Assembly: GCA_046598045.1 (NCBI GenBank)
Contig: JBKJJJ010000174.1
Span: forward strand, 42,148-106,147
Reading direction: 5' to 3'
From: Candidatus Eiseniibacteriota bacterium
GTDB taxonomy: Bacteria > Eisenbacteria > RBG-16-71-46 > DASYSL01
DNA: 64,000 nt
Shown: positions 38,744 through 46,300 of the stretch, in pieces
How the letters are laid out: the number at the start of each line of letters is the position of its first letter
How positions within the stretch are numbered: the stretch's first letter is position 1
Made by a program: the position numbers and the translations under genes
Notes under the pieces: generated by a model
Told to the model about the DNA's origin: nothing
Seen by the model: only the letters and a program-made list of their open reading frames with translations
Databases searched by the model: none

Positions 38744-40456
38744 CTACGCGGCCTTGGCCTTGGGCTGCGCGTCGCCGCGGGCGATGAGCCACGACTGCAA
38801 CGCGGTCAGCAGGTTGATCACGGTCCAGTAGAGGACCAGTCCCGACGGCAGGTTGTAGAACAGGAACAGGAAGACCAGGTTCATCAACGTCATCGTGGTC
38901 TTCTGCTTCGGGTCGGTCGGCGACATGTGCATCTGGAGCACCATCGACCCGTACATCAACACCGGCATGAGGCGCAGCGGCACCGGCCCGATCTGGGCGA
39001 GCAGGTCCGGCGACGACAGGTCGGTGATCCAGCCCACGAAGCCCGCCTGGCGCAGCCCGATCGAATACCCGAGCACGTGGTAGAGCGCGAGGAAGAACGG
39101 CATCTGGATGACCATGGGCAGGCAACCCGAGAGCGGGTTGATCTTGTGCTCCTTGTAGAGGCCCATCATGGCCTCGTTCAGCTTCTGCGGATCCTTCTCG
39201 TGCTTCTTGCGGATGCGCTCGACTTCGGGCTGGATCTTCTGCATCGAGCGCATCGAGCGCATGCCCTGCGACTGCAGCGGGTGCGTCGCCGCCTTGGCCA
39301 GCGTCGAGAGCAGGATGATCGCGAGGCCCCAGTTGCCGACGACCTTGTGGAAGAACCCGAGCAGCCACGCCAGCGCGGACGAGAACGGCCGGAAGAAGTT
39401 GAACGCAAATGCGTGCGGCGGCTCGAGGTCCATGCCGATGCGCTGGATGTGCCAGTAGTCGAGCGGCCCGGCATAGAGCATGTACTGGTGGACGCGTCCC
39501 GCGGCGGGCAGCGGCAGCGTGATGTCGCCGATCACTGCGTCGTGGGCCTCGGGAAGCGTGCCCGGCGCGAGGTTGGCCGACGTGGCGACGCCATCCACGT
39601 TCTCGGCGACCAACCCGAGCAGGAAGTACTTGCTGTGGACCGCGAGCCAGGAGACGGCGCCCTCGCGCGATTTCACGCCCTTCTTGAGCCCCGTCGCCAT
39701 CTCGCGGCGGTTGTCCTTGCCGACCTTCGCGGTCACGCCGAGGTTGTTGAGGTCCTCGAGGTGATTGCGCTCGGTTGCCAGCGGCCACGAGCGCAGCGCG
39801 ATCCGGTAGTGCCTCAGGTCGAGCTTGGGGTCGAGCCCGGCGATCGAGACGGAGTAGCCGATGCGATAGTCGGCGGCGTTGAAGCGGAACGCCTGTTCGA
39901 TCGTGAGCCCGCTCGAATCCCGCGCGGTGAACGTGAGCTTCGCGACGTGGCCCGAGGTGTCGAGGCTCTCGGCCCACGCGTAAGGCACGTCGTCGAGGTC
40001 GATCGGAGTCTGCGCGTCGCCGAGGTCGAGCGCGAGCGCCGGATCCCCCGACAGCGTGGCGCGGCCCGAGTTGCCGTCCTTGTAATCCTTGAGCACGACC
40101 GAGAGCAGGCGCGCGCCGCGCGCGCGAAGGCGCGCCGTGTAGAGCGGCTGCTCGATGGTCAGGATGCTGTCGGCGCCGGCGGGTGCGAGCCACGTGCCGT
40201 TTGCTCCGCCCGCGCTGTCGGGCGCGGCCGGGACATGGCTGCCGAGGATCGCAGCGGCCGGACCCTTGACCGGCGCGGGCGCTTGCAACTGCGGCGTGCC
40301 GCCGGGGACCGTCGGTCCCGCGGGCGTCTGCACCTTGACCTGGGCCTGGCGCTGTTGCGCGGGCGTGGGAATCCACCCGAGCTTCTGGAACAGGAGGTTG
40401 GAGCCGAACAGGACGACGAACGAGAGCGCGATCGCGACCAGCGCGCGGCGATCCAT
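38744..40456 (-). CDS. yidC: Membrane protein insertase YidC
   Basis: N-terminal TM, large periplasmic domain, and the C-terminal five-TM 60-kDa-IMP core (..NPLSGCLPMVIQMPFFLALYHVL.. and NLPSGLVLYWTVINLLT). Confidence 0.9.
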   Translation of the reverse strand: MDRRALVAIALSFVVLFGSNLLFQKLGWIPTPAQQRQAQVKVQTPAGPTVPGGTPQLQAPAPVKGPAAAILGSHVPAAPDSAGGANGTWLAPAGADSILTIEQPLYTARLRARGARLLSVVLKDYKDGNSGRATLSGDPALALDLGDAQTPIDLDDVPYAWAESLDTSGHVAKLTFTARDSSGLTIEQAFRFNAADYRIGYSVSIAGLDPKLDLRHYRIALRSWPLATERNHLEDLNNLGVTAKVGKDNRREMATGLKKGVKSREGAVSWLAVHSKYFLLGLVAENVDGVATSANLAPGTLPEAHDAVIGDITLPLPAAGRVHQYMLYAGPLDYWHIQRIGMDLEPPHAFAFNFFRPFSSALAWLLGFFHKVVGNWGLAIILLSTLAKAATHPLQSQGMRSMRSMQKIQPEVERIRKKHEKDPQKLNEAMMGLYKEHKINPLSGCLPMVIQMPFFLALYHVLGYSIGLRQAGFVGWITDLSSPDLLAQIGPVPLRLMPVLMYGSMVLQMHMSPTDPKQKTTMTLMNLVFLFLFYNLPSGLVLYWTVINLLTALQSWLIARGDAQPKAKAA

Positions 40457-40459
40457 GCG

Positions 40460-40681
40460 TCAGGCGTCCCGCGTCGGAGTGGTGGGCACGGGATCGACGC
40501 CGTGGCCGCCCCAGGGGTGGCAGCGGAGCAGGCGCTGCGCGGTCAGGCCGAGGCCGCGCCACGAGCCGTGCCGGATCAACGCCTCCTCGGCGAATTCGGA
40601 ACACGAAGGCCAGTAGCGGCAGGTGGCAGGCAGCAGCGGAGAGACGAGGCGCCGGTAGAGCCGGATCACCAGGACGGTCAT
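40460..40681 (-). CDS. yidD: Membrane protein insertion efficiency factor YidD
   Basis: 73 aa from ATG 40681. YidD signature RYWPSCSEFAEEALIRHG and conserved Cys. The long track ORF 40460..40999 has a spurious N-terminal extension. Confidence 0.8.
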   Translation of the reverse strand: MTVLVIRLYRRLVSPLLPATCRYWPSCSEFAEEALIRHGSWRGLGLTAQRLLRCHPWGGHGVDPVPTTPTRDA

Positions 40682-40686
40682 GGGGA

Positions 40687-41085
40687 TCAAGAGTCGAGTA
40701 CTCCCAGTTGCTGCATGAGTTGGGCGACGTCGAGCGCCAGTCGATCGAAGTCTACGTGCGGCGCCGAGGGCAGCGCAATCAGCACGACCTGCCGGCCGTC
40801 GGGATGCACCCGGGGCCAGAGCGCCCGCGCGATCTGGCGCAGGCGGCGCTTGGTGCGATTGCGCAACACCGCGTTGCCCACCTTGCGGCTGGCGATGATC
40901 CCGACCCGGGACGGCTCGCCGACTGCGACGTGGGCGTAGGCCACCACGCACTGCCCGCGGCGGCTCAAACCCTCGCGGAACGCGCGCTGATACTGCCACC
41001 CGCGGACGAGGCGATGCGCGCGCCCAAAGCGCGCGCGCGGCTCCGGCCCGCCCGGTGGGACCGGGGGATCGGCGGGACGCACCAT
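40687..41085 (-). CDS. rnpA: Ribonuclease P protein component RnpA
   Basis: Position between rpmH and yidD. Basic RNR motif region (VLRNRTKRRLRQIARAL). Confidence 0.75.
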   Translation of the reverse strand: MVRPADPPVPPGGPEPRARFGRAHRLVRGWQYQRAFREGLSRRGQCVVAYAHVAVGEPSRVGIIASRKVGNAVLRNRTKRRLRQIARALWPRVHPDGRQVVLIALPSAPHVDFDRLALDVAQLMQQLGVLDS

Positions 41086-41119
41086 GTTTTCGTCCGGGAT
41101 GACGGCTCGGCGCGGGCGA

Positions 41120-41260
41120 CTACGAGGAGACGGTCAGACGCTTGCGGCCGCGGGCGCGACGACGCGCCAGGACCTTGCGACCGTTCGCCGTCTTCATCCG
41201 GGCACGGAAGCCGTGCACCTTCCTGCGGCGGCGGTTGTGGGGTTGAAACGTGCGCTTCAA
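41120..41260 (-). CDS. rpmH: 50S ribosomal protein L34
   Basis: TTG start at 41260, 6 nt downstream of GGAGG. Translates [47 protein letters not shown] (46 aa), matching the L34 consensus MKRTFQP..HGFRARM..GR.VL.RRRAKGRKRL. The 93-aa track ORF has a spurious extension. Confidence 0.8.
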
Positions 41261-41551
41261 GACAGACCTCCAGACAGGGGCGATTCCGGGAAACCCAAGA
41301 CCGGGAAAGTACTTAACTCCGGCCGGAAGGTCAAGGGTCGTGCCCCTGAAATTGCAGACCCTCTCCGAGGAGGCCGCGCCGGGCGCGGGCGGGAGGCCCA
41401 AAGTCGGCGGGCAGCCAAAATCGGACTCAACTCATTGTTCTGTATTGCATTAGGCTGACTCGCATATCATTTCAGGGGCACGAGGGAAGGGTTGCAGTCG
41501 TTCGCGGGGACCCTTAGCTTGTGTCCAACCCCCTCAGGAGGAGGCAAAACC

Positions 41552-42278: not shown

Positions 42279-42833
42279 TTGCCCACGCCCGCCGACGAGC
42301 TCACGAAGTCCGCGCTGACCGCGTCGGCGGGCGACCACCCCGGGACGATCCAGTCGTACTACCCGTTCTGGGACTCGTACTTCCGGCCCTACCTGCTCGA
42401 CGCGGTCGAGTTGCTGCCGGCGTCGCAGTTCGACTTCAAGCCGCGGCCCGAGATGCTGACCGCGAGCCAGCTCATCCTCCACATCGCCGAGGCCGAACGC
42501 TGGTGGATCCATCACATCGTCGAGCAGGAGCGCTACGAGGACTTCGTGGTCCGGCACGAGGACCCGGCCCGGGGCTGGGTGACCGTGTATGACGCGCCGG
42601 ACCACAACATGCTGCGCTTCACGCTCGAGGAGTACCACCGCCACACGCAGCGACTGTTCGGGCTGCCGGCCCGGGAACTCGAGCGCCGGGTGACGCATCG
42701 GCGGGAGAATGGCGTGGAGACGACCTACTCGCTGCACTGGATCCTGGCCCACGTCGAGGAACACGAGCTGCACCACCGCGCGCAGCTGAGCATGTACCTC
42801 CGGCTGCTGGGGATCCCGCCGCCGACTTTCTGA
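42279..42833 (+). CDS. DinB/YfiT-like (DinB_2) metal-dependent four-helix-bundle protein
   Basis: TTG start at 42279. His triad spread as LILHIAEAERWW ... HRRENG ... HVEEHELHHRAQL. Confidence 0.6.
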   Translation: MPTPADELTKSALTASAGDHPGTIQSYYPFWDSYFRPYLLDAVELLPASQFDFKPRPEMLTASQLILHIAEAERWWIHHIVEQERYEDFVVRHEDPARGWVTVYDAPDHNMLRFTLEEYHRHTQRLFGLPARELERRVTHRRENGVETTYSLHWILAHVEEHELHHRAQLSMYLRLLGIPPPTF

Positions 42834-42839
42834 GCCGAC

Positions 42840-44327
42840 CTACTCGACCATTTCCTCGGGGCGCACGTCGACCTTCTCCGGGTGGACCGCCTCCAGCACG
42901 GTGACGTGGCTGGAGTGGCCGCGCGGGACGCCCTGGTTCGCCAGGTCGATGCGGCGGCCGTCGAGCGACGGCATGCCGGACACCTCGCGCAGGATCTTGA
43001 CCACGGGGGCGGTGACGTCCTCGGCGTTCGGGTAGACCGACAGCGCGAGCTCGCCGCTCGACAGCCGCACGAGCGTGCCCGGGGGGTAGATCCCGACCGT
43101 CTGGATGAACACCTTGAGCAGCGTCGAATCGAAGCGCTCGGGAATCTTGCTCGTCATGTAGTGCAGCGCCTCGTAGGGCGTGAACGGGTGCTTCTGGTAC
43201 GAGCGGTGCGCGGTCATGGCGTCGAAGCAGTCGCAGACCGCGACGATGCGACTCATCAGGTTCTGCTCGCGCGGCCGCTTGACGTGCGGGTAGCCCGAGA
43301 GGTCGATGTTGAGGTGATGCTCGTAGGCGACGGCGATCGCGCGCATCGCCAGCGGCGACAACCCGTGGAGGCGCGTGATGATCTTCACGCCCTCGATCGG
43401 GTGGGTCTGCATGAGCGACCACTCCTCGGGCGAGAGCCGGCCGGGCTTGGCGAGGATCTCGTTCGGGATCACGACCTTGCCGATGTCGTGGAACAGGCCG
43501 GACACGCCGAGCTGCGAGAGCTGCTGCTTGGTGAGCCCGAGCCGGTGGCCGACGGCGATCGAGAGAATCGCGACGTTGACGCAATGCTGGTACGTGTACT
43601 CGTCGTAGTCCTTGAGCGTGGTCATGCCGAGCAGCGACAGCTCCTGCGACAGGATCAGGTCCACGATCGACTGCACGGCGCGCTTCGCCTGGCGCAGGTC
43701 CACGCTCTTGCCGCGACGCGCGGTGAGCATCACGTTCTTGGTCGACTGGATCGCGCGGAAGAACGTCTTCTTCGCGACCATGCGGCGACCCTGGGCCTCG
43801 GTGTCGGTCGGGTCCGCGGGCGGCAGCACGAGTTCGCGCACCGGCAGGATGCGCGAGACGCCCTCGACCTCGCACTGCGCGATGATCGCGTCGAAATCCG
43901 GCGGCGATTGCGCCGACTCACCGAGGAAGATGCGCGTGAAGGTCTGCAGCTCGCTGCGCTCGAGGCTCTGCGAGAAGCGCAGGCCCCCGACGTGCCGCCG
44001 CGCGAGCTCGTCGCAGATGAACTGGTGTGACGCGTAGCCGACCACGTCCACCTTGAGGCGCTGGTCGTTGATGTACAGGCAGTCGCCCACCACCTGGATC
44101 ACGAAGTCCGAGCCGAGCGACAGCATCTGCTGGATCGAGTCCATCAGGTTGCCGAGCGATTGCGCGTACGCGACGTTGCGCGCGTCGTAGAGGCGCGCCG
44201 TCTTCCAGAACACGGAGAGGTTCGCGGCCAGCGAGCGGCCGGCGACGGTCAGGCGCGAGGCATGGGCCTCGTCACCGACATCGCGCGAAAGTTCGCGGGC
44301 GGAGTTGCCGTCGTGATGGGGGTTCAT
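42840..44327 (-). CDS. HD-GYP domain c-di-GMP phosphodiesterase with an N-terminal DUF3391-like domain
   Basis: ATG at 44327 (MNPHHDG). HD motif GLFHDIGK. GYP motif HHLNIDLSGYP. The start overlaps the upstream gene's stop (ATGA). Confidence 0.85.
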   Translation of the reverse strand: MNPHHDGNSARELSRDVGDEAHASRLTVAGRSLAANLSVFWKTARLYDARNVAYAQSLGNLMDSIQQMLSLGSDFVIQVVGDCLYINDQRLKVDVVGYASHQFICDELARRHVGGLRFSQSLERSELQTFTRIFLGESAQSPPDFDAIIAQCEVEGVSRILPVRELVLPPADPTDTEAQGRRMVAKKTFFRAIQSTKNVMLTARRGKSVDLRQAKRAVQSIVDLILSQELSLLGMTTLKDYDEYTYQHCVNVAILSIAVGHRLGLTKQQLSQLGVSGLFHDIGKVVIPNEILAKPGRLSPEEWSLMQTHPIEGVKIITRLHGLSPLAMRAIAVAYEHHLNIDLSGYPHVKRPREQNLMSRIVAVCDCFDAMTAHRSYQKHPFTPYEALHYMTSKIPERFDSTLLKVFIQTVGIYPPGTLVRLSSGELALSVYPNAEDVTAPVVKILREVSGMPSLDGRRIDLANQGVPRGHSSHVTVLEAVHPEKVDVRPEEMVE

Positions 44328-46300
44328 GCGGCCTGGTCCTGGCTTTCCTCGAGCGCCTTCCTGCTGGCGCCCCGCACCGCGGGAATGAGGCTCCGGGCGT
44401 GCCGCCTGAGCACGGCCTGGGCATCGGGATCGTTCATGTGCGCCAGCGCCTGGGCGGCGAGTTCGCGGCGCGCGCGCAGGTCGCTGCCGCCGCCGAGGCG
44501 CCACAGGCCGAGCCACGCGTCGAGCGTGGCCAGCACCACGGGACCGCCGACGCCGACCAGCGTGTCGAAGTAGGCGCCGCGCTCCACCGTCGATTGCTCC
44601 GCGAAGCGCGGGCCGCCGAGCACGGCGAGCAGCCGCTCGGCGAGCGCGCGGCTTTCCTGCGCGGCGCCGAACGACTCGCGCACCGCGTGCAGGCCGGCCG
44701 CGCGGACCTGGGGATCGTCGTCGTCGAGCGCGCGCAGGAGATAAGGCCGCGAGTTGGGGTTGCCCGTCGCGGCGATCGCGGCGATCGCCTCCTTGCGCAC
44801 GCGGGCCTCCACGTGCGACGTGGCGGCCGTGAGCGCCTGCTCGGCGTCGGGGCTGCCGACCTGCGCAAGCACCTGCACGAGCAACCGCGCGGCCGCGGGC
44901 GGCGCGTGATCGATGCGCCCGCGCACGGCGGCGAGATCCTGCTTCGCGAGCTCGACCAGCGCGAGCTGGAGGTAGCCGTGCAGCGAGTGCAGGTCGACGT
45001 CGACCAGCAGGTCCACGACCGGGTCGATCACGCGCGGACCGAGGTGCACGAGAAATTCGGGAAGCAACGATCCGTCGGCCTCGGGGTGGCGCCCGAGCGC
45101 GGACACCGCTTGCGCGGTGAGATCGCGCACGTCGGGCATGAAGCCCTGTGGGTCGTGCCCGCGGCTGGCGGAGAGGGTCTTGAGCGTCGCGACGATCTCG
45201 ACCGCGTGGCGGAGGTCGGCCTCCTGCACGACGACGATCAGCAGGTCGCCGAACGCGCGCGCGAGATCGGCGAACGCCTCGGGCTTGGTCTCGATCTCGG
45301 CGACCTCGGTCAGGATCTCGAGCACCACGTCGTGCAGCGAGCGCGAGTGCTCGCGGTGGATCTCCTCGGCGAGCGCCTCGATCTCCTGCGACGTGAGATG
45401 CAGGAAGTCGCTCGAGCAGCTCTCGTCGACGTGCGCCACCGGCACGAGTTCGTTCCAGTCGTCGGCGCGGTGGCCGGAGCCGCCGTCCTCCGCGGTCCAG
45501 CCGTGATGCTCGGTCCAGGGCACGCCGGTCAGCTCGTCGACCGCCTCGGACTCGTCGCGCTGCGGGAACGAGAGCTCCAGCTCGGCGCGCGCCTCCGCGC
45601 TCAACTGCTGCAGGTCCATGCTCTCGTGCAGGTCGTCGATCGCGAGGTAGGCGTACGAGATGTGCGAGAACTCCTGCTCCCAGAACAGCGTCACCAGGTC
45701 GTCCTCGAGCGAGGCCGATTCCATCGCGTGCGCCATCACCGAGAGGAAATCCTCGAGCTCCTCGGAGGCGAGGCCCTCCTGGAAGACCAGCTCGGTGATG
45801 CCGTCCTTCGAGAAGCGGAACGCGATCGATTCCTTCTTGCTCGTGTTGTTGTAGATGCTCTGCCCGAGGAACAGGAGGTCGAACTGCTGCACGGTGACGT
45901 GGACGTCGCCGACGGCCTCGAGCGTCTCCGACATCGCGATCGTGGCTTCGGCGAGGATCCGTTGGAGCTGGGGATTGTTCGCCGGATACATGCGCTTGGC
46001 CTTGAGCGCGCGCACCAGGATGCGCATCAGGTCGCGCAGCCGCCCGATGGTCTGCTGCTCGCGCTGTTCGGCATCGAGCGCGGCGAGTCCCGGGGCGAGC
46101 GGAGTTCCCGCCGCCTCGCCGGCGGAAGTCGGGGACGACTCGTCGTCGTCGCCGGGCTCCACCGTCGAACCGAAACCGTTGATGGGCGTGTTCGGCAGTT
46201 TCAGGGGCTTCATGCGGGCGGGCGTGTTGCTGATGCCCTCGCCGCGCGAGCCCGGCCCGCCGGCCATGCCGCGTTCGTCTTCGGGTTGATCCACGGGCAT
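44324..46300 (-). CDS. HEAT-repeat protein whose N-terminal domain is homologous to the N-terminus of the downstream HD-GYP protein
   Basis: ATG at 46300 after GGAGGG. Acidic central region. C-terminal HEAT/PBS-lyase-like repeats (LLRALDDDDPQVRAAGLHAVRE). N-terminal block RMYPANNPQLQRIL...VTVQQFDLLFLGQSIYNN...FRFSKDGITELVF aligns with RLYDARNVAYAQSL...VIQVVGDCLYINDQ...LRFSQSLERSELQTF of the HD-GYP protein. Confidence 0.6.
   Translation of the reverse strand: MPVDQPEDERGMAGGPGSRGEGISNTPARMKPLKLPNTPINGFGSTVEPGDDDESSPTSAGEAAGTPLAPGLAALDAEQREQQTIGRLRDLMRILVRALKAKRMYPANNPQLQRILAEATIAMSETLEAVGDVHVTVQQFDLLFLGQSIYNNTSKKESIAFRFSKDGITELVFQEGLASEELEDFLSVMAHAMESASLEDDLVTLFWEQEFSHISYAYLAIDDLHESMDLQQLSAEARAELELSFPQRDESEAVDELTGVPWTEHHGWTAEDGGSGHRADDWNELVPVAHVDESCSSDFLHLTSQEIEALAEEIHREHSRSLHDVVLEILTEVAEIETKPEAFADLARAFGDLLIVVVQEADLRHAVEIVATLKTLSASRGHDPQGFMPDVRDLTAQAVSALGRHPEADGSLLPEFLVHLGPRVIDPVVDLLVDVDLHSLHGYLQLALVELAKQDLAAVRGRIDHAPPAAARLLVQVLAQVGSPDAEQALTAATSHVEARVRKEAIAAIAATGNPNSRPYLLRALDDDDPQVRAAGLHAVRESFGAAQESRALAERLLAVLGGPRFAEQSTVERGAYFDTLVGVGGPVVLATLDAWLGLWRLGGGSDLRARRELAAQALAHMNDPDAQAVLRRHARSLIPAVRGASRKALEESQDQAA

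Follow-up and report, generated by a model that had tools for sequence, protein, structure and literature searches.

The window, a 64,000-nucleotide stretch of DNA from a Candidatus Eiseniibacteriota bacterium, contains two adjacent genes that encode a HEAT-repeat protein (P1) and a protein of the HD-GYP phosphodiesterase type (P2). The genes, their junction and the protein regions they encode are located as follows.

44324..46300, minus strand: P1 gene (658 aa, HEAT repeats), an open reading frame with a public gene call of the same length and homologues P0001-P0058
46082..46300, minus strand: P1 aa 1-73, low-complexity tail predicted to be disordered (pLDDT <50; variable and gappy in alignment A1)
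45635..46069, minus strand: P1 aa 78-222, P1-type shared N-terminal alpha/beta domain (hhalign against the P2 N domain; AlphaFold pLDDT ~90)
45419..45634, minus strand: P1 aa 223-294, variable linker, mostly disordered (pLDDT <50 at 223-234 and 244-294; alignment)
44330..45412, minus strand: P1 aa 297-657, all-helical HEAT-type solenoid
44332..44340, minus strand: Shine-Dalgarno-like AGGACCAGG, read from the sequence within the 3' end of P1, 4-9 nt upstream of the P2 start
44324..44327, minus strand: ATGA overlap of P1 stop and P2 start
42840..44327, minus strand: P2 gene (495 aa, HD-GYP phosphodiesterase), an open reading frame from the ATG at 44327 with a public gene call of the same length
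43830..44270, minus strand: P2 aa 20-166, P2-type shared N-terminal alpha/beta domain (hhalign; AlphaFold pLDDT >88 for residues 21-160)
43617..43802, minus strand: P2 aa 176-237, helical linker from the N domain to HD-GYP (modelled helix starts at 176; DLRKAKRxVQ motif kept in the family)
43095..43616, minus strand: P2 aa 238-411, HD-GYP catalytic domain (solved-structure matches; metal ligands kept in 72/72 members)
42843..43094, minus strand: P2 aa 412-495, conserved C-terminal extension with the motif GIYPPGTLVxL (family consensus)

The ATGA overlap that an earlier note on this DNA had claimed was confirmed by reading the junction, where the P1 stop codon TGA occupies positions 44326-44324 and the P2 start codon ATG positions 44327-44325. 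The same 4-nt overlap is present in independent gene calls of relatives and in 28 of the 79 loci described below. Judged from its sequence, AGGACCAGG may function as a Shine-Dalgarno element for P2.

The C-terminal part of P1 is an alpha-solenoid of paired helices resembling solved HEAT proteins in an AlphaFold model built from the shallower alignment A1, and a Pfam HEAT_2 match at aa 463-539 scores 55.1 bits against a cut-off (gathering score) of 27.7. These two results bear out the earlier description of P1 as a catalytically silent scaffold and point to a non-enzymatic HEAT solenoid. A degenerate HD domain in the middle and C-terminal region was rejected (hhalign probability <1%). A conserved GSGxRxDDW patch lies inside the variable linker. 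In the N domain, Y105, N109 and D166-G167 are invariant in the family alignment, the motif DDLVTLLWE is found at aa 200-208, and the modelled elements are H70-104, H110-130, E133-137, E141-144, E147-151, H159-165, E168-173, H179-194, H202-209 and E214-218. P1 is related in sequence to known HEAT scaffolds and adaptors (the PP2A A subunit; the phycobiliprotein lyases CpcE/CpcF and MpeQ; E. coli YibA) through generic HEAT repeats only, and it differs from them in adding an N-terminal alpha/beta domain that is common to its enzyme partner. Nothing points to P1 sharing the lyase function of CpcE/CpcF and MpeQ.

P2 has Pfam HD_5/HD matches at aa 238-403 and matches the solved structures PmGH (4MCW, E 2.8e-24), V-cGAP3 (5Z7C) and PA4781 (4R8Z). 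No solved structure matches P2 aa 239-411 better than PmGH, a GAF-HD-GYP protein and the reference active c-di-GMP phosphodiesterase. The HD-GYP residues of P2 are H248, H280-D281, K294, H309, H337-H338, D342, G345-Y346-P347 and D366. Among these, H248, H280-D281, H309, H337-H338 and D366 align with the His/Asp metal ligands of PmGH and are present, as are G345 and P347, in 72/72 members of the P2 family; Y346 is found in 71/72 and K294 in 67/72. K294 (in LAKPG) aligns with the LLKPG of PmGH and is equivalent to its c-di-GMP-binding Lys235.

However, P2 also differs from PmGH in several respects. In place of the canonical signature HHExh(D/N)GxGYP it reads HHLNIDLSGYP, the acidic residue of its N-terminal loop is displaced by one position (DEYT), its sensor domain is different and it has ~85 additional aa at the C-terminus. 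Across the P2 family, the four residues seen most often at the E position of the signature are L, M, R and I, with no E among them, and L or R predominates at the G position (G itself in 11/72). As judged from its alignment, the P2 family carries a variant HD-GYP signature, and the changes from HHE to HH-L/M and from DG to D-L/R make substrate and activity uncertain. We regard P2 as probably an active HD-GYP-type cyclic-nucleotide phosphodiesterase, whose substrate would be c-di-GMP or a related cyclic dinucleotide. The C-terminal extension (aa 412-495) has no Pfam match; it also occurs in the fusion proteins described below. In the N domain of P2, family-invariant residues are G30, T43, N51, A53, R111, F118, F130 and F134, and the AlphaFold elements are H12-46, H52-71, E75-80, E83-86, H98-110, E115-118, H124-135, H145-155 and E160-163.

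We compared the N-terminal domains of the two families at the level of profiles, as the earlier note had proposed. Alignments of P1-N and P2-N matched by hhalign with 98.5% probability (E 2.3e-15, 141 columns), and a second comparison (alignments A3 vs A2) gave 97.3% (E 1.8e-11, 147 columns). Full-length profiles of the two proteins match only at P1 78-247 vs P2 20-192, and control runs with other regions or reversed profiles never exceeded a probability of 4%. HMMER searches across families agree, the P2-N model matching the window P1 (E 2.4e-9) and the P1-N model the window P2 (E 5.8e-4). BLASTP of P1 vs P2 gave nothing significant (best E 1.2), indicating that the similarity needs profiles to be seen, and a Smith-Waterman comparison was marginal (z = 2.7; 38/2000 shuffles scored equally high). 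The AlphaFold models of both N domains have the element order H-H-E-E-E-H-E-H-H-E in common, and in the profile alignment the only residue invariant in both families is an Asn (P1 N109 = P2 N51). The proposal that the two proteins share a homologous N-terminal domain, here of ~145 residues, is thus upheld by the profile comparisons and their controls. Of the four motifs on which that proposal was based, R-x-Y-x-A-x-N, L-x-F and E-L-x-x-F fit the register of the profile alignment, but G-x-x-I-Y-x-N lies 5 residues out and is a coincidence. The P1 motif DDLVTLLWE is strongly conserved, P1-specific and without a P2 counterpart, so the functions of the two N domains may differ.

The further suggestion that this domain is a DUF3391-type module did not hold. 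PF11871 (DUF3391) gave no match at E<=10 in 35 members (14 P2-N and 21 P1-N) and none at E<=1 in full-length P1 and P2. Whereas in DUF3391 (Bd1817, PDB 3TM8) four beta-strands precede two long helices, the shared N domain opens with two long helices and continues with a beta/alpha unit in the AlphaFold models, and 3TM8 is absent among the fold matches listed for these models. Fold searches gave no match of the N domain to solved structures, no significant hit came from a profile search of PDB sequences, and Pfam, NCBIfam and PADLOC scans returned neither a family for it nor a link to defence systems. The N domain appears to be a previously undescribed alpha/beta domain of ~145 residues that is absent from Pfam. 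In overall layout, P2 resembles the Bd1817 family (DUF3391-HD-GYP; PA4108, VC2497), which likewise has a cytoplasmic N domain (~120-150 aa), a long helix and a C-terminal HD-GYP, but the N domains differ in sequence family and topology. The function of the Bd1817-family N domain is not known, and it may promote dimerisation (Galperin and Chou preprint). Our literature search on DUF3391 proteins found no description of an obligate HEAT partner with a second copy of the domain, and no relevant work came up in searches that combined HEAT repeat with HD-GYP, or with c-di-GMP, phosphodiesterase and operon.

Relatives of P1 are encoded at 217 genome loci, and we analysed 85 loci (80 from that scan and 5 from contig look-ups). 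A co-occurrence survey, also proposed earlier, found a full-length P2 homologue directly after P1 on the same strand in all 79 loci with enough downstream DNA. Their junctions range from a 34-nt overlap to a 46-nt gap and the genes overlap in 47/79 (28 of the 47 being of ATGA/GTGA type), distances that are biased towards small values by our choice of the start codon nearest the P1 stop as the P2 start; in three loci the chosen starts coincide with those of independent gene calls. P1 loci span ~ten phyla (Eisenbacteria, Nitrospirota, Desulfobacterota/Syntrophia, Gemmatimonadota, Zixibacteria, Acidobacteriota, Armatimonadota, Ignavibacteria and Oligoflexia among the groups represented). No conserved third gene accompanies the pair, the best neighbour family being lineage-specific and present in 14/85 loci. 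P1-P2 is a strictly conserved two-gene unit. The distance matrices of P1 and P2 are correlated (r = 0.95) and their subfamilies congruent (ARI 0.72-0.75), the correlation being confounded by the shared species phylogeny.

An exhaustive search recovered 6,632 cluster representatives, with both subunit types counted. The best 150 comprise P1-type and P2-type proteins, isolated-domain fragments, a few odd chimeras and at least 13 single-chain fusions. These fusions, 1004-1985 aa long, join P1N-HEAT-P2N-HD in a single chain, a domain order identical to the gene order of P1-P2; they are present in several independent assemblies, and one was verified as a single 3360-nt open reading frame. In P0201 two N domains stand in tandem, in keeping with a pairing of N domain with N domain. 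We left out P0200 and P0245 as reliable fusions, since they look like frameshift read-throughs; P0233 and P0218 have the appearance of chimeric assemblies. Members of the fused clade have lost the GYP motif, so their HD part may not be a phosphodiesterase, in which case the partnership of P1 and P2 may not depend on catalysis.

That P1 and P2 are always either paired or fused suggests that the two proteins work as one complex, which is well supported, if indirectly, by these comparisons of genes and genomes. We give a probability of about 60% to the reading that P1-P2 is a two-gene signalling module in which a likely active phosphodiesterase and a HEAT scaffold, bearing paralogous N domains, assemble as a complex. 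A functional P1-P2 unit, as implied by the complex suggested in the earlier note, gains support from the invariant adjacency and the natural fusions; both of these are functional linkage and leave the interface unspecified. The two genes would be co-transcribed and translationally coupled, such that P1 and P2 would be made together and could assemble into a hetero-oligomer. The likeliest interface would be a pairing of the two related N domains in a pseudo-symmetric heterodimer, and the HEAT solenoid may be the subunit through which the phosphodiesterase is controlled or localised, in a regulatory or targeting role like that of the PP2A A subunit towards its catalytic subunit. A more far-reaching version, which we advance tentatively and at somewhat under even odds, is that the N module is a new fold and a dedicated heterodimerisation/sensing domain, defining a widespread two-subunit HD-GYP holoenzyme with the HEAT pseudo-paralogue as its obligate regulatory/targeting subunit.

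Alternatively, each N domain might bind the same small-molecule or protein signal, with P1 and P2 acting separately on different outputs and being co-expressed to answer one input. The N-terminal domains of HD-GYP proteins are generally held to be sensors (Galperin and Chou preprint), and each of the two families has its own invariant set with a single residue invariant in both. However, P1 has no recognisable output domain, and repeated whole-protein fusion, overlapping start and stop codons and unbroken adjacency are more typical of subunits in one complex, which makes separate action unlikely, at perhaps one chance in five. It is less probable still that P1 is an anti-enzyme rather than a scaffold, a pseudo-paralogue whose N domain breaks P2 homodimers into inactive heterodimers. 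The common N domain would suit such a role, as would the view that HD-GYP enzymes work as dimers, which their N-terminal domains may promote (Galperin and Chou preprint). Yet constitutive 1:1 co-translation and permanent fusion would keep the enzyme inhibited unless a further signal acts, and a conserved HEAT solenoid of 360 residues exceeds the needs of a decoy.

Much more doubtful is the idea that the shared module is a divergent DUF3391, which would place P2 among the ordinary Bd1817-family proteins. Of the cytoplasmic N-terminal partners of HD-GYP, DUF3391 occurs most often, and conservation in its Pfam model is weak (Galperin and Chou preprint), but the searches and topologies above speak against this origin. 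Finally, a resemblance due to chance or composition (two helix-rich regions in a high-GC genome, with an incidental gene overlap) would accord with the BLASTP and Smith-Waterman results and the one motif out of register, but is refuted by hhalign, the reciprocal HMMER cross-matches and the reversed and off-target controls, and is further opposed by identical predicted topologies and a pairing kept at every informative locus.

EAL enzymes are far better understood than HD-GYP phosphodiesterases. A census of HD-GYP architectures includes many with undefined N-terminal domains (Galperin and Chou preprint). One such domain is defined here and is also present on a separate HEAT protein; in many phyla, most of them uncultured, the enzyme and this protein are passed on as a unit, in some cases as a fusion. 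The N domain is a candidate new domain family for databases, and the fusion proteins could provide structural work with the proposed complex in natural single-chain form. The reading of P1-P2 as a complex gives a model, open to testing, in which an HD-GYP enzyme has a non-catalytic subunit dedicated to it. If true, the holoenzyme version of this reading would represent, across ~6,600 cluster representatives and ~ten phyla, a counterpart in bacterial second-messenger signalling to PP2A and other holoenzymes built from a scaffold and a catalytic subunit.

P1, the HEAT-repeat protein, and P2, the HD-GYP protein encoded next to it, each carry a copy of an N-terminal domain, paralogous between the two, that has not been described before (the N domain; P1 aa 78-222 and P2 aa 20-166). 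Homology of the two N-termini, as claimed in the earlier note, is borne out by family profile comparison, HMMER cross-detection and matching predicted folds. BLASTP of P1 against P2 found nothing (best E 1.2), and the N-terminal regions of the two, aligned by Smith-Waterman, were only marginally similar (z = 2.7; score equalled in 38 of 2000 shuffles). With family profiles built from collected homologues of both proteins, hhalign matched P1 family aa 80-240 to P2 family aa 20-200 at a probability of 98.5% (E 2.3e-15, 141 columns), and the independent family alignments A3 and A2 gave 97.3% (E 1.8e-11, 147 columns). The full-length profiles produced a sole alignment, P1 78-247 with P2 20-192, and off-target and reversed hhalign controls all remained at ≤4% probability. 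Plain HMMER profiles also cross-detected the other window protein (E 2.4e-9 and 5.8e-4).

The two families align in MAFFT nearly without gaps across ~141 residues, and the one residue universally invariant in both is an Asn (P1 N109, P2 N51). AlphaFold models computed from separate alignments contain confident N domains in both proteins (pLDDT about 90) with a common order of elements: two long helices, three short strands, a helix, a strand, two helices and a strand. Among the motifs on which the similarity had originally been proposed, R-x-Y-x-A-x-N, L-x-F and E-L-x-x-F are in register, but G-x-x-I-Y-x-N is five residues off and matching it would place P1 strand 3 opposite P2 strand 2. Apart from that register, the original observation is confirmed.

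The gene pair and its flanks lie in the window as follows:
44324-46300, minus strand, ORF of P1 (658 aa)
42840-44327, minus strand, ORF of P2 (495 aa), with the ATG at 44327 taken as start
44327-44335, Ala-Ala junction, with homologous junctions in loci L001, L002, L007, L012 and L014
46513-48744, plus strand, TonB-dependent receptor gene, upstream flank of the pair
42279-42833, plus strand, DinB-family gene, downstream flank of the pair

Because the genes on both sides are on the opposite strand, P1 and P2 make up a two-gene unit. Publicly available gene calls for a 113-kb NCBI contig contain exactly the same two products, and close homologues come from Candidatus Eisenbacteria. At the junction (...GCCGCATGAACC..., minus strand) the sequence reads as the ATGA overlap that the earlier note had described, with the P2 ATG (44327-44325) sharing bases with the P1 TGA (44326-44324), and a AGGACCAGG stretch lies 4-9 nt 5' of the P2 start. 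In the Eisenbacteria clade, P1 has a conserved Ala-Ala C-terminus (GCGGCATGA or GCCGCATGA), and this conservation may reflect constraint from the overlapping P2 ribosome-binding region and start codon rather than P1 function. A short way downstream of the pair, at 38744-41401 on the minus strand, follows an rpmH-rnpA-yidD-yidC cluster. Cumulative GC skew across the window reaches its maximum at 44-46 kb, and gene orientation becomes divergent across the 212 bp that separate P1 from the TonB-dependent receptor gene (46300/46513), a possible replication landmark.

In many phyla the genes of P1 and P2 are obligately linked and translationally coupled. Directly downstream of three distant P1 homologues (45%, 23% and 24% identity) an HD_5/HD gene is called, with overlaps of 4, 4 and 23 nt; beyond these two genes the neighbourhoods are unrelated. 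When GTDB was scanned with one genome for each species, 217 loci turned out to encode relatives of P1, and the 80 kept include Eisenbacteria, Nitrospirota/Thermodesulfovibrionia, Syntrophia and other Desulfobacterota, Gemmatimonadota, Zixibacteria, Acidobacteriota, Armatimonadota, Ignavibacteria and Oligoflexia. With five loci from contig look-ups added, a full-length P2 homologue with the N domain comes next on the same strand in 79/79 loci with enough downstream DNA (the six left out are contig ends). The two genes overlap by up to 34 nt or lie up to 46 nt apart, distances that the choice of P2 start codon biases short; 47 of the 79 overlap, 28 of them in the ATGA/GTGA manner. No conserved third gene was found near the pair in the 85 loci. 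Pairwise P1 distances track pairwise P2 distances (correlation r = 0.95), and the division into subfamilies is largely congruent between the two proteins (ARI 0.72-0.75). Some genomes carry two diverged pairs (L016/L042, L017/L038, L023/L024, L044/L047 and L018/L057; 27-32% identity for P1 and 33-50% for P2), consistent with the two genes having been duplicated or acquired together.

The two genes have also been fused, in gene order and apparently repeatedly. A combined N-domain profile, run with HMMER exhaustively against 1.84 billion cluster representatives, matched 6,632 proteins at E ≤ 1e-3 (2,316 at E ≤ 1e-10), and architectures were sorted for the 141 not yet retrieved among the best 150 of the 6,632. 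These 141 comprise 79 P1-type (N-HEAT) proteins, nine P2-type (N-HD) proteins, 34 short N-domain-only proteins that are probably fragments, a few odd chimeras, and at least 13 single-chain P1N-HEAT-P2N-HD fusions of 1004-1985 aa, co-linear with the genes (fusions: P0204-P0211, P0215, P0237, P0273, P0291, P0296, P0333; L086:3001-6360). Besides the chimeras, no other architectures, such as GGDEF or kinase outputs, were found in those best 150. Pfam places HEAT_2 and HD in the same fusion polypeptides, fusions recur in independent assemblies (e.g. MBK6683847.1, 1400 aa, on a 6.9-Mb contig), and P0206 was confirmed in GCA_037442205.1 to be one ORF of 3360 nt. In several clusters the linker between the halves has its own conserved motif, which argues against a frameshift artefact. 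P0200 and P0245 look like read-throughs and were not counted among the reliable fusions. Many fusions carry long low-complexity N-terminal extensions, and the P0333 C-terminus is weakly protein-kinase-like. P0201 (696 aa, on eight contigs) is P1-type with two tandem N domains before the HEAT solenoid. In the odd chimeras P0233 (329 aa) and P0218 (237 aa), a P1-type N domain continues directly into mid-HD-GYP sequence or into the latter half of a P2-type N domain; these are probably assembly artefacts, but could also stem from recombination between the two homologous domains.

Pfam matches are confined to aa 463-540 of P1 (HEAT_2/HEAT/HEAT_PBS) and aa 238-403 of P2 (HD_5/HD), leaving both N-termini without a hit, and NCBIfam added nothing specific. 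The DUF3391-type module suggested earlier is not supported: DUF3391 has no match at E ≤ 1 in either protein. P2 aa 239-411 match PmGH (4MCW, E 2.8e-24), V-cGAP3 and PA4781. By sequence the catalytic site is intact: in 72 unfused P2-family members the metal ligands H248, H280, D281, H309, H337, H338 and D366 are invariant, GYP is kept (G345 72/72, Y346 71/72, P347 72/72), and so in 67/72 is K294, the equivalent of the c-di-GMP-binding Lys. P2 is thus likely to be an active HD-GYP-type phosphodiesterase. Relative to the canonical signature HHExh(D/N)GxGYP, the family has L or M for E and mostly L/R for G, and the fusions whose sequences were read have HD and HH without GYP. A conserved ~85-aa extension with the motif GIYPPGTLVxL follows the HD-GYP domain (aa 412-495; window 42843-43094); it lacks a Pfam match and occurs throughout the P2 family and in fusions.

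From the shared domain, the obligate coupled pairing or fusion and the intact catalytic site we infer, as the earlier note had suggested, a hetero-oligomeric signalling complex of P1 with P2. Alternatively, the interface might lie elsewhere, such as in the P1-specific DDLVTLLWE helix, P1 might be a decoy inhibitor, or the two proteins might act as parallel independent sensors. If they do form a complex, the most economical interface would be pairing of the related N domains, with the HEAT solenoid as a regulatory or targeting subunit. The accessible literature describes neither an HD-GYP/HEAT pair nor the N domain. The HD-GYP enzyme class and HEAT scaffolds are already well known; the shared N domain and the fixed two-subunit or fused architecture are new.
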